Assembly: GCA_000004695.1 (NCBI GenBank)
Contig: CM000152.2
Location: 6,240,001-6,304,000, forward strand
Length of the DNA: 64,000 nt
Direction: 5' to 3'
Source of the DNA: Dictyostelium discoideum
Taxonomy: Eukaryota
In this document: in pieces, positions 62,095 to 63,618 of the stretch
Position numbering within the stretch: the stretch's first letter is position 1
Layout: the number at the start of each line of letters is the position of its first letter
Notes under the pieces: model-generated
Told to the model about the DNA's origin: nothing
The model's input: the letters and a program-made list of their open reading frames with translations, nothing else
The model's database searches: none
Program-made: the position numbers and the translations under genes

Positions 62095-62173
62095 TTATAA
62101 ATGAAATATATTTTCATTAGGTTAAAAAAAAAAAAAAAAAAAAATGTTTAATAAAATTATAAATCTTTTTTTT

Positions 62174-62228
62174 TTTTTTTTTTTTTTTGATTGGATAATG
62201 CAATTGCAAGTTGCTTCTCCTTGAAATA
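62174..62228. repeat. 50-bp dispersed repeat shared with 21793..21846.
   Basis: ttggataatgcaattgcaagttgcttctccttgaaatacttgttttcatt versus ttggataatgtaattgtaggttgcttcttttccttgagatattgttctcatt. Confidence 0.6.
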
Positions 62229-62399
62229 CTTGTTTTCATTTCCAAAAAAAAAAAAAAAAAAAAAATAACAAAAAAAGAAAATTTAATGTCGTGAATCTAA
62301 TTTTATTTTCAGTCTTTTTGAGACACGATGCTTATTGCAAAGTAATATTAAACTAAAAAAAAAAAATAATGTTAGCATCAAAATTTATTTAATTTTTGA

Positions 62400-63410
62400 A
62401 AATGATAAATATTTAACCTTACTATTGTTTCACTTGTGTGTTCACACAACCAAGTTCTTTGTTCTTTCGGATTGGTCAATGCTATTGATTTTTTATCAGT
62501 GGGATTGACAGTTACATTTCGGTACAAGAATTGGTTGGGACTAGTTGAGTTGATTGTGATAGTAAAGTTATTAAAATTAAACCTGGCAATTATCCTGCGT
62601 TATGACACAATGCTTGGTGGCAATCATTTACATTTAATAATATTATGCAATCATGGGCGAAAGTTGGTTTCCTCAAATTTGACATGTTTAATATCATTGA
62701 TGAACGTTTTTTAAATATGAATGCGCCAATTTTGAAAAGTAGATACAAATGTACAATGCTAAAGTTTCCTTCAAATACAACTAATGTTTTGCAGCCGTTA
62801 GATAGCGTTGTCTTCTCATCATTTATAGCACAAATGAACACTTATTGATAGAGTATAAAATAAAATTAATTATATATATTAGTATATTATTTTATATTAT
62901 ATATGTATTATAAAACTATTGAATTATACATACCAAACCAGAATTGATAATAAATACATTGCCAACAGACACAGGGAATTCTAGATTTGATTCCTGTATC
63001 TGCTGCCAAATCAAGCCTCCAGTCATCATAAATTGAATCATGTGGTTTACCAACACGTTCAGTACAGTTACTTAATCATTTATAACATAGTCACGTATTT
63101 TTATTTTTAGAAGTATGAACTTAAGATATACACCAGATAGAATTAATAAAATTCATTCTGAAAAGGTTGGTGAATGTATAATGGAAAAGATAATAAATCT
63201 ACTCAATAAGAACCTATTTGGAATTTCAAGAAGTTTTATTGGTAGATTTATCAACTCTGGTATTGTGGAATCACGTGAAAGAATACTTTCATTGGTAAAC
63301 CAAAAAAAAAAAAAAAAAACTAAATTGTTAAAAGATAAGATTTATTTATTTTTTTGTTTTTTTTTCAAAAAAAAAAAAAAATTAAAAATAAACAAGATCT
63401 CTTACTTTTA

Positions 63411-63456
<46 letters not shown>

Positions 63457-63480
63457 TCTAAATATCTCTTAATATAACTT
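62400..63480 (+). mobile_element. Degenerate remnant of a pogo/Tigger-type (DDE_1) DNA transposase, fragmented into several frames. It sits in a local island of higher GC.
   Basis: ORF 62645..62848 encodes ...MLKFPSNTTNVLQPLDSVVFSSFIAQMN. This matches the hallmark C-terminal DDE_1 motif LPPNTTS.LQPLDQGVI...K..Y. The adjacent frame reads LHLIILCNHGRK, a decayed LLLDNxxSH. ORF 63115..63477 encodes ...LFGISRSFIGRFINSGIVESRER, an HTH-like stretch. The composition differs sharply from the flanks. Confidence 0.55.
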
Positions 63481-63618
63481 AAAAAAAAAATAATAATTAA
63501 TTTTAAAAATATTTATAAATAAACGATTTCTTAAGAGGGGTTGCTTTAACTGTTCTAATTAAGAAAGTTGAAAACGACGTTTTTAAAAATATATTTTAAT
63601 TTTAATTTTTAAAAAAAA

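Follow-up and report, generated by a model that had tools for sequence, protein, structure and literature searches.

A very probable pogo-type transposon relic with segments apparently flipped in place in an intergenic spacer of Dictyostelium discoideum chromosome 3

The DNA considered here is a 64,000-nucleotide stretch of Dictyostelium discoideum chromosome 3 (GCA_000004695.1, contig CM000152.2, positions 6,240,001 to 6,304,000 of the forward strand; the whole stretch is called the window and is numbered from its first letter), and the question raised by its right end is what the transposase-like sequence in the spacer there is, how its parts came to be out of order, and whether it belongs with a cluster of hairpins near 21 kb. 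A sequence-only reading had described an old, rearranged pogo/Tigger-like DDE_1 remnant with a 50-bp repeat at its left edge, shared with the hairpin region, and had taken the two places for relics of one DNA-transposon family. Positions 62304-63348 are very probably a dead, partly deleted DNA transposon of the pogo superfamily, in which five segments (tiles T1 to T5) keep their order, T2, T3 and T5 are flipped in place, and the 50-bp repeat and the 21-kb element have no part. The relic forms an intergenic, unannotated island in an AT-rich window (~15-29% G+C); G+C content is 27-36% at 62400-63300, except for an AT-rich intron remnant near 62850-62930, versus 8-20% in the surrounding spacer.

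Identification started from the FPSNTTNVLQPLDSVVF...AQMN peptide at 62765-62839 (plus strand), within an open reading frame (ORF) of 80 amino acids (aa) at 62606-62845. This frame was compared by phmmer with 1.84 billion representative proteins, with matches listed at E≤0.001. Seven were listed, and five of the seven are real relatives, all dictyostelid: P0002 from Dictyostelium cf. discoideum (78% identity, E 1.9e-29), P0004 and P0005 from the same source, P0007 from a D. discoideum isolate, and P0006 from Synstelium polycarpum. The genomes named 'cf. discoideum' are those of the cryptic sister species of D. discoideum (bioRxiv 10.1101/2025.08.01.668227). The other two matches look unrelated to the relic, P0003, a protein of tandem repeats, being hit in 7 short stretches, and P0008, of 1971 aa, at 26% identity (E 8e-4). 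A second search added P0009 (531 aa) and P0010 (541 aa), and a word-indexed search for homologues of the 80-aa frame returned no match. The best matches outside the dictyostelids were animal pogo/Tigger-like proteins, at ~25% identity and E 1e-10 and weaker.

Domain assignments were made at the Pfam cut-offs of 22 bits for DDE_1 (PF03184) and 22.2 bits for HTH_Tnp_Tc5. All five phmmer relatives exceed the DDE_1 cut-off (28-44 bits), with scores of 32.8 for P0002, 43.8 for P0006 and 39.9 for P0007; the added P0009 and P0010 score 31 and 30.3 bits. P0009 carries HTH_Tnp_Tc5 as well (27.2 bits), together with generic helix-turn-helix (HTH) matches at aa 26-55. The relic peptide itself (..FPSNTTNVLQPLDSVVFSSF..) scores 15.7 bits (E 0.012), which is sub-threshold, and its membership in DDE_1 is therefore assigned through homology to members that pass the cut-off and not by its own score. 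With that understood, the DDE motif noticed earlier is real, since the 80-aa frame matches dictyostelid DDE_1 proteins at E 1.9e-29; no other DDE_1 homology was found in the window outside 62.3-63.35 kb. Judged by these comparisons, the transposase family is a divergent dictyostelid lineage of the pogo superfamily with the architecture HTH, HTH_Tnp_Tc5 and DDE_1 and a DD35D/E triad.

Intact elements of the family, 2.3 kb long, were found in the cryptic sister species. The loci used below are L002 (the P0002 locus), L003 (the P0009 locus) and L005 (a P0007-type copy), in addition to L004, L006 and L007. L002 and L003 are 94.4% identical over 2280 bp, with no identity beyond and with different neighbouring genes. 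Both copies are bounded by a terminal inverted repeat of 43-45 bp, CACCCRCCCTGTTTTKCATGAACGMAACCGCTTGTGTTTTTTT, and have TAA at both ends, as seen in two copies only, in AT-rich DNA and with no empty site for comparison; TAA target-site duplications are reported for some pogo elements (PMC7386202). The transposase gene carries introns. The triad of P0009 comprises D1 in NIDEKG and D2 in VDNHSSN, followed, by hand count, after 35 residues by QPLE; the third catalytic position is E in P0009 and D (QPLD) in P0002.

These elements bear directly on whether the relic could be the pseudogene of a domesticated, pogo-derived host gene of the CENP-B/Tigger-derived type. The small size of the family would suit such a gene, with five dictyostelid relatives in 1.84e9 representative proteins, of which one belongs to the distant Synstelium polycarpum. 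The nearest relatives, however, have terminal inverted repeats and TAA flanks, and two genomes carry them as near-identical copies at loci without synteny; truncated copies of the family occur at further loci. Terminal repeats, TAA flanks and near-identical copies at unrelated loci mark a mobile element and not a host gene, so that a domesticated origin is extremely improbable. The claim of an old, rearranged pogo/Tigger-like DDE_1 remnant thus stands, with closest relatives that are mobile (94%-identical copies at unrelated loci) and not an intact host gene.

Two features of the sister-species loci were recorded alongside. At L002:10290-10365 the P0002 gene model splices out a second 'intron' that is not AT-rich and is coding in P0009 (..VCTMYTERVGKSRDTVSDDWWLNFRN.., in the HTH_Tnp_Tc5 domain); despite its annotation as a 471-aa protein, L002 is therefore probably frameshifted and not intact. 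At L004:1-3468 the P0005 pogo-like relic adjoins reverse transcriptase, RNase H and integrase genes of a long terminal repeat (LTR) retrotransposon, which fits a clustering of transposon debris in these genomes.

To place the parts of the relic (~70-80% identical to intact relatives), it was mapped by blastn to L003, where the gene can be read through as a single transposase, and by tblastn with P0009. T1 (62304-62554, minus strand) matches L003:7652-7402 (79.6% over 260 bp, E 2e-53) and covers aa ~407-470 of P0009, in the C-terminal third, plus a remnant of intron 3; at the protein level aa 407-450 fall on 62557-62423 (minus), with stops and frameshifts. T2 (62543-62715, plus strand) matches L003:7205-7374 (80.9% over 173 bp, E 5e-40) and encodes aa 348-397 (tblastn 84% identity over 50 aa, E 6e-28), with the peptide KIKP..YPAL.HNAW.QSFTFNNIMQSWAKVGFLKFD..NIIDERFL. 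T3 (62717-62871, aligned span 62686-62871, plus strand) matches L003:7034-7217 (73.9% over 188 bp, E 5e-31), encodes aa 294-334 (tblastn 78% identity over 41 aa, E 2e-20) and carries the third catalytic residue, with QPLD at 62794-62805. T4 (62856-62987, extended to 63063 by protein matches, minus strand) matches L003:6937-6799 (74.8%, E 2e-19) and holds a remnant of intron 2 followed by aa 259-241 (tblastn E 3e-7), aa 228-221 (weak) and aa 120-103 (61% identity, E 2e-6), the last being part of the HTH_Tnp_Tc5 domain; an internal deletion has removed aa 121-220, including the catalytic D1 ('DEKG'). T5 (63105-63348, plus strand) matches L003:5991-6254 (68.5% over 270 bp, E 7e-32) and spans the N-terminal HTH together with the region of the start codon (aa 1-85, ..FGISRSFIGRFINSGIVESRERILSL..), with aa 4-85 of P0009 recovered by tblastn at E 3e-11. 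An HTH-like stretch at 63115-63300 (plus, LFGISRSFIGRFINSGIV) that had been reported as out of order is thus the true N-terminus, lying downstream of the DDE part.

Read from left to right, the tile strands are minus, plus, plus, minus, plus, while the L003 coordinates fall monotonically, and the protein-level map agrees. Neighbouring tiles abut in L003 coordinates (7402 beside 7374, and 7205 beside 7217). The minus orientation of T1 is taken as the original orientation of the relic; T2, T3 and T5 are placed as in a minus-strand gene but are read on the plus strand, and each has accordingly been inverted in place. Segments missing altogether are aa 86-102, 121-220 (with D1), 229-240, 260-293 (with D2), 398-406 and everything beyond ~470, amounting to a coding loss of ~45% that includes D1, D2 and the 3' end. 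Of the catalytic triad only the third position survives, and the N-terminal DNA-binding domains are partly kept (aa 4-85 in T5, aa 103-120 in T4). T1 and T2 are interrupted by stops and frameshifts. Given the stops, frameshifts and losses, the relic can neither encode a transposase nor be mobilised; given the remnants of introns 2 and 3, its source was a DNA copy and not an mRNA.

The tile map also settles what the 80-aa frame is. ORF 62606-62845 is a chimera in which aa 348-397 of T2 are fused in frame to aa 294-334 of T3 at ..IIDERFL/NMNAPILK.., and a contiguous DDE_1 domain of DD33D type, with 'IIDER' as D2, is ruled out by the order of aa 348-397 before aa 294-334. The peptide LHLIILCNHGRK at 62622-62654, put forward earlier as a transposase fragment, resembles one by chance only and lies in a different frame of T2 (E 0.38); the true 'VDNHSSN' segment is deleted.

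How the tiles came to be flipped was considered first against a mosaic of several nested insertions in opposite orientations, trimmed afterwards by deletion and involving no in-place flips. Dictyostelium transposons do nest (a foldback-type element abuts a truncated pogo-like relic in L007), and the tile identities to L003 vary from 68% to 81%, as separate insertions might leave them. Against this, the plus-strand tiles fill exactly the interval that is absent from the minus-strand copy, with ends that agree within ~12-30 bp, and the order is perfectly monotonic; by our own arithmetic five independent tiles would fall into such an order by chance at 2/5!, nesting gives no reason for it, and no terminal repeats were detected inside the relic. 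A nested mosaic is hence improbable, and flipping in place is the preferred account of T2, T3 and T5.

A further in-place inversion is seen in the family itself. L002:11374-11458 is the exact reverse complement of L003:7378-7462 (85 bp), with identical flanks and 6-bp inverted termini (ATCATT...AATGAT). The L003 version reads through in frame (..SLPLPQPTSNQLVPTNSSTAIVPVNAND..), and the window follows L003; in L002 the inversion breaks the reading frame, and the gene model skips the segment as a false 'intron' that is not AT-rich. The family therefore shows at least one clean, recent in-place microinversion, independent of the flips in the relic. Within the relic, the T1-T2 junction coincides with an inverted repeat of 9 bp that the intact element carries (TTGTGGTAA at ~7216 and TTACCACAA at ~7388; p ~0.07 against random window pairs), and the T2-T3 junction shows a few bases of direct microhomology only.

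Rearranged non-autonomous derivatives arise by interrupted or abortive gap repair, as with maize Ac/Ds and MuDR, and short in-place inversions arise through template switching during replication, as in quasi-palindrome and template-switch mutations and in fork stalling and template switching (FoSTeS) or microhomology-mediated break-induced replication (MMBIR). The relic shares with such products its internal deletions, its inverted segments and its junctions at short homologies, and the one clean in-place inversion of the family is, like them, bounded by a short inverted repeat. Unlike the usual products of a single event, the relic has three tiles of ~120-245 bp flipped singly, two of them adjacent, with the order kept, and microhomology is clear at one of its junctions only. 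The flips could have arisen by microhomology-mediated template switching in replication or repair, that is, by serial strand switches such as may occur in interrupted gap repair after excision or in events of the FoSTeS/MMBIR type; alternatively, successive small inversions could have reused breakpoints. We infer that template switching, which carries about half of our confidence in a mechanism, is to be favoured over successive inversions, with the caveat that the data cannot separate the two.

Several points weigh against the flipping account and against the relic as described. Inverted repeats at the tile ends are significant for no tile, T2 being marginal (p ~0.07) and T3 and T5 not above chance. 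The order of T2 before T3 could also be obtained by one inversion and a tandem duplication with trimming, or by circular permutation. The flips are known from the window locus alone, and the 85-bp inversion is known from two long-read assemblies only, in which an assembly error is conceivable. The window copy, moreover, shows no terminal repeat: a fuzzy search, and Smith-Waterman alignment against shuffled sequences, found none of the family's terminal inverted repeats in the window, with T-run matches as the only returns. That serial strand-switching repeatedly flips segments of ~85-245 bp in place, whether in this family or across the AT-rich genome of Dictyostelium at large, is a tentative suggestion and on balance a doubtful one.

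The intact relatives share with the pogo superfamily (IS630-Tc1-mariner; pogo, Tigger, Fot1/Fot-like; PMC7386202, PMC7325037) the HTH, HTH_Tnp_Tc5 and DDE_1 domains and a single transposase gene between terminal inverted repeats; their TAA flanks would agree with a target-site duplication type reported for some pogo elements (PMC7386202). DD35D spacing is reported for Fot/Fot-like and Passer elements (PMC7386202), within a superfamily range of DD29-59D/E, and the 35 residues of P0009 correspond to the DD35D type of the Fot/Passer clades. Unlike typical pogo elements, the dictyostelid family has spliceosomal introns in its gene and only ~25% identity to proteins from outside the dictyostelids; unlike pogo members in general, the window copy lacks terminal repeats, D1 and D2 and falls below the Pfam DDE_1 cut-off. 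In sum the relic is an ordinary dead transposon with one unusual property, the tile-wise inversion in place.

Whether the 50-bp repeat belongs to this transposon was examined next. Its recurrence is real: copy 1 (62190-62235, plus strand, ATTGGATAATGCAATTGCAAGTTGCTTCTCCTTGAAATAC...) stands directly after a T24 run and a TATAAAT box, with A22 behind it, copy 2 (21795-21845, plus strand) lies 310 bp past the terminus of the foldback-type element described below, and 62150-62241 and 21757-21848 are 83% identical over 95 bp, T-run included. The core sequence is AATTGNNRGTTGCTTC..TCCTTGA, and its 29-nt degenerate form gave 2 hits where 0 were expected. A third copy is present at L004:7682-7714 (88% over 33 bp), ~310 bp past a P0010-type relic. 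Its supposed place as left edge or terminal repeat of the transposon did not hold up, the outermost homologous base of the relic on the left being 62304 and the repeat being absent from the intact copies (L002, L003, L006) and equally from L005, which is P0007-type, and L007, which holds the full foldback copy. Smith-Waterman alignment of the repeat to the element ends in L002, L003, L005 and L006 was not significant against shuffles, by which the repeat was rejected both as the 3' coding end of the family and as its terminal repeat, and no inverted partner lies to the right of the relic. A match of the P0005 C-terminus (..SIVSCFSLK) was discarded as an artefact of a gene model that splices into the third repeat copy, 310 bp beyond the L004 relic. 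Membership of the repeat in the pogo-like element is unsupported by these comparisons, and it appears to be a separate repeat.

As to what the repeat may be, Rfam gave no match at the gathering threshold or at E≤10, the two window copies share no fold, and a metagenome scan with the core returned 7 chance hits on GC-rich contigs. Class I non-coding RNAs (ncRNAs) of Dictyostelium are ~60 nt long; they begin with a 5' G, have a terminal stem of 6 bp and carry an 11-nt motif (T, C, C, A, A at positions 3, 6, 9, 10, 11), and a Dictyostelium upstream sequence element (DUSE) lies ~60 nt upstream (PMC7919456). The repeat was tried as such an ncRNA and rejected by inspection, no 11-mer fitting the motif and no DUSE-like CCCA lying upstream. 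On the plus strand both window copies (62166-62265; 21768-21795) start right after a T20-24 run that has a TATA-like box ahead of it, a context described for Dictyostelium transcription start sites (PMC6161686), and copy 1 is enclosed by perfect homopolymer inverted repeats. Seen from the minus strand, each copy closes with ..CATTATCCAAT(C) and runs into A20-24; this could instead represent the end of a poly(A)-tailed retroelement. The window has no tRNA genes, and the context of a tRNA-targeting retroelement therefore does not apply.

The start-site context gives some circumstantial footing to the idea that the relic has been co-opted, with a transcript of sense and antisense transposase segments feeding RNA interference (RNAi) against pogo-like elements: a TATA box and T-run precede 62190 on the plus strand, and the relic tiles alternate in strand. 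No tile is present in both orientations, however, so that no hairpin RNA would form, and, with its stops, its frameshifts and a divergence of 20-30%, the relic shows the decay of neutral DNA. Co-option of this kind is accordingly most improbable, and the relic is better regarded as the dead transposon described above.

The hairpin cluster and the coding-like orphan fragment noted earlier near 21 kb are both real and are parts of another element. This foldback-type copy (20425-21485, minus strand) comprises a terminal repeat at 21328-21485 (terminus ...TTTTGGCATGGGAC at 21485), an ORF fragment at 20677-20955 (minus) and a remnant of the other repeat at 20425-20440. The hairpins within 21328-21485 have 29-nt arms that are 93% complementary, and the motif GCTGAAATTAATATGR occurs 6 times in the window, all within 20425-21478, against 0.35 expected. 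Matches to L007 by blastn were 21188-21407 to 4561-4332 (76%, E 2e-36), 21328-21425 to 5922-6021 (86%, E 1e-25) and 20654-20815 to 5256-5090 (79%, E 1e-30). A complete copy of 1.73 kb lies at L007:4295-6022, with termini GTCCCATGCCAAAAT... and ...ATTTTGGCATGGGAC, an internal ORF, and terminal inverted repeats of ~150 bp (4295-4448, 6022-5890) that are 95-100% identical and built from GCTGAAATTAATATGR units. The small ORF of the L007 element contains stops in any single frame and was modelled with introns; the window fragment has 49% aa identity to its C-terminus (E 4e-14). The L007 and window loci are not syntenic. The 21-kb element has no DDE_1 similarity, and Rfam returned only generic noise of the microRNA (miRNA)-precursor kind on its hairpins, far below threshold. 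With hairpin-rich terminal repeats and dispersed copies both found, 20425-21485 is, as far as its sequence tells, a copy of a separate element resembling foldback elements or miniature inverted-repeat transposable elements (MITEs).

Several observations had invited the view that the 62-kb relic and the 21-kb hairpins are one DNA-transposon family with the 50-bp repeat as a terminal or subterminal sequence: the repeat lies ~70 bp from the outermost tile of the relic and 310 bp from the hairpin element, its third copy lies ~310 bp beyond another pogo-like relic in L004, and a pogo-like relic abuts the hairpin element in L007. That view is very unlikely to be right, given that the repeat is present neither in the intact pogo-like copies (L002, L003, L006) nor in L005 (P0007-type) or the complete hairpin element of L007, that it has no inverted partner to the right of the relic, that the true terminal repeats of the pogo-like family are a different sequence, and that the 21-kb element has terminal repeats and an ORF of its own without DDE_1 similarity. 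For these reasons the proposal of two relics of a single transposon family was abandoned, and the 21-kb element is treated as distinct from the pogo-like relic.

The 21-kb element may be a known foldback-like Dictyostelium transposon of the thug type, to which it is likened by description. Thug-S is described as a Dictyostelium DNA transposon whose intron yields miRNA-like RNAs (PMC4894637). The 21-kb element resembles thug-S-like foldback/MITE elements in being short, in its long, hairpin-rich terminal inverted repeats, in its small interrupted ORF and in its multiple copies; it matches no Rfam family, and the likeness to thug-S or thug-T is one of description only. In L007, as a separate observation, the annotated DDE_1 fragment P0004 takes its first seven codons (MVILAWD) from the foldback terminal repeat, and its gene model is for that reason a chimera of two transposons.

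The surroundings of the relic were recorded as follows. It sits in a 1.6-kb spacer between two plus-strand genes, the left neighbour being a coiled-coil gene (57857-61276 and 61369-62094, spliced by eye) and the right neighbour starting near 63739. No single-exon gene lies within 10 kb. A window ORF at 18530-19384 (minus) is identical to D. discoideum DDB_G0282815. A 1355-aa gene present both at L005 and in the window was considered as a sign of synteny and set aside as a coincidence. At 63524-63580, ~160-215 bp upstream of the ATG of the next gene, a short G+C-containing island (aaacgatttcttaagaggggttgctttaactgttc..gaaaacgacg) stands amid homopolymeric DNA and may be a promoter element; its similarity to the transposon terminal repeat is not significant, and a terminal-repeat look-alike spotted by eye at 63524-63556 is unsupported.

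For the family and its host, the analysis identifies an intergenic island as a pogo-type fossil whose intact relatives in the sister species are labelled only 'hypothetical protein' in the records consulted. It also corrects two misreadings: the 80-codon frame joins two flipped tiles and is no contiguous domain, and the nearby hairpins belong to another element. The family is apparently degraded in the lineage of the laboratory strain and intact nearby, a contrast of use in annotating transposons and in dating the loss. The flips of the relic, together with the 85-bp inversion between young copies, provide a concrete test case for template-switch microinversions. If flipping in place by strand-switching is indeed recurrent, the relic would preserve several events of that process, with the L002/L003 inversion as a fresh example, and many 'unalignable' stretches in comparisons of Dictyostelium strains could hide microinversions.

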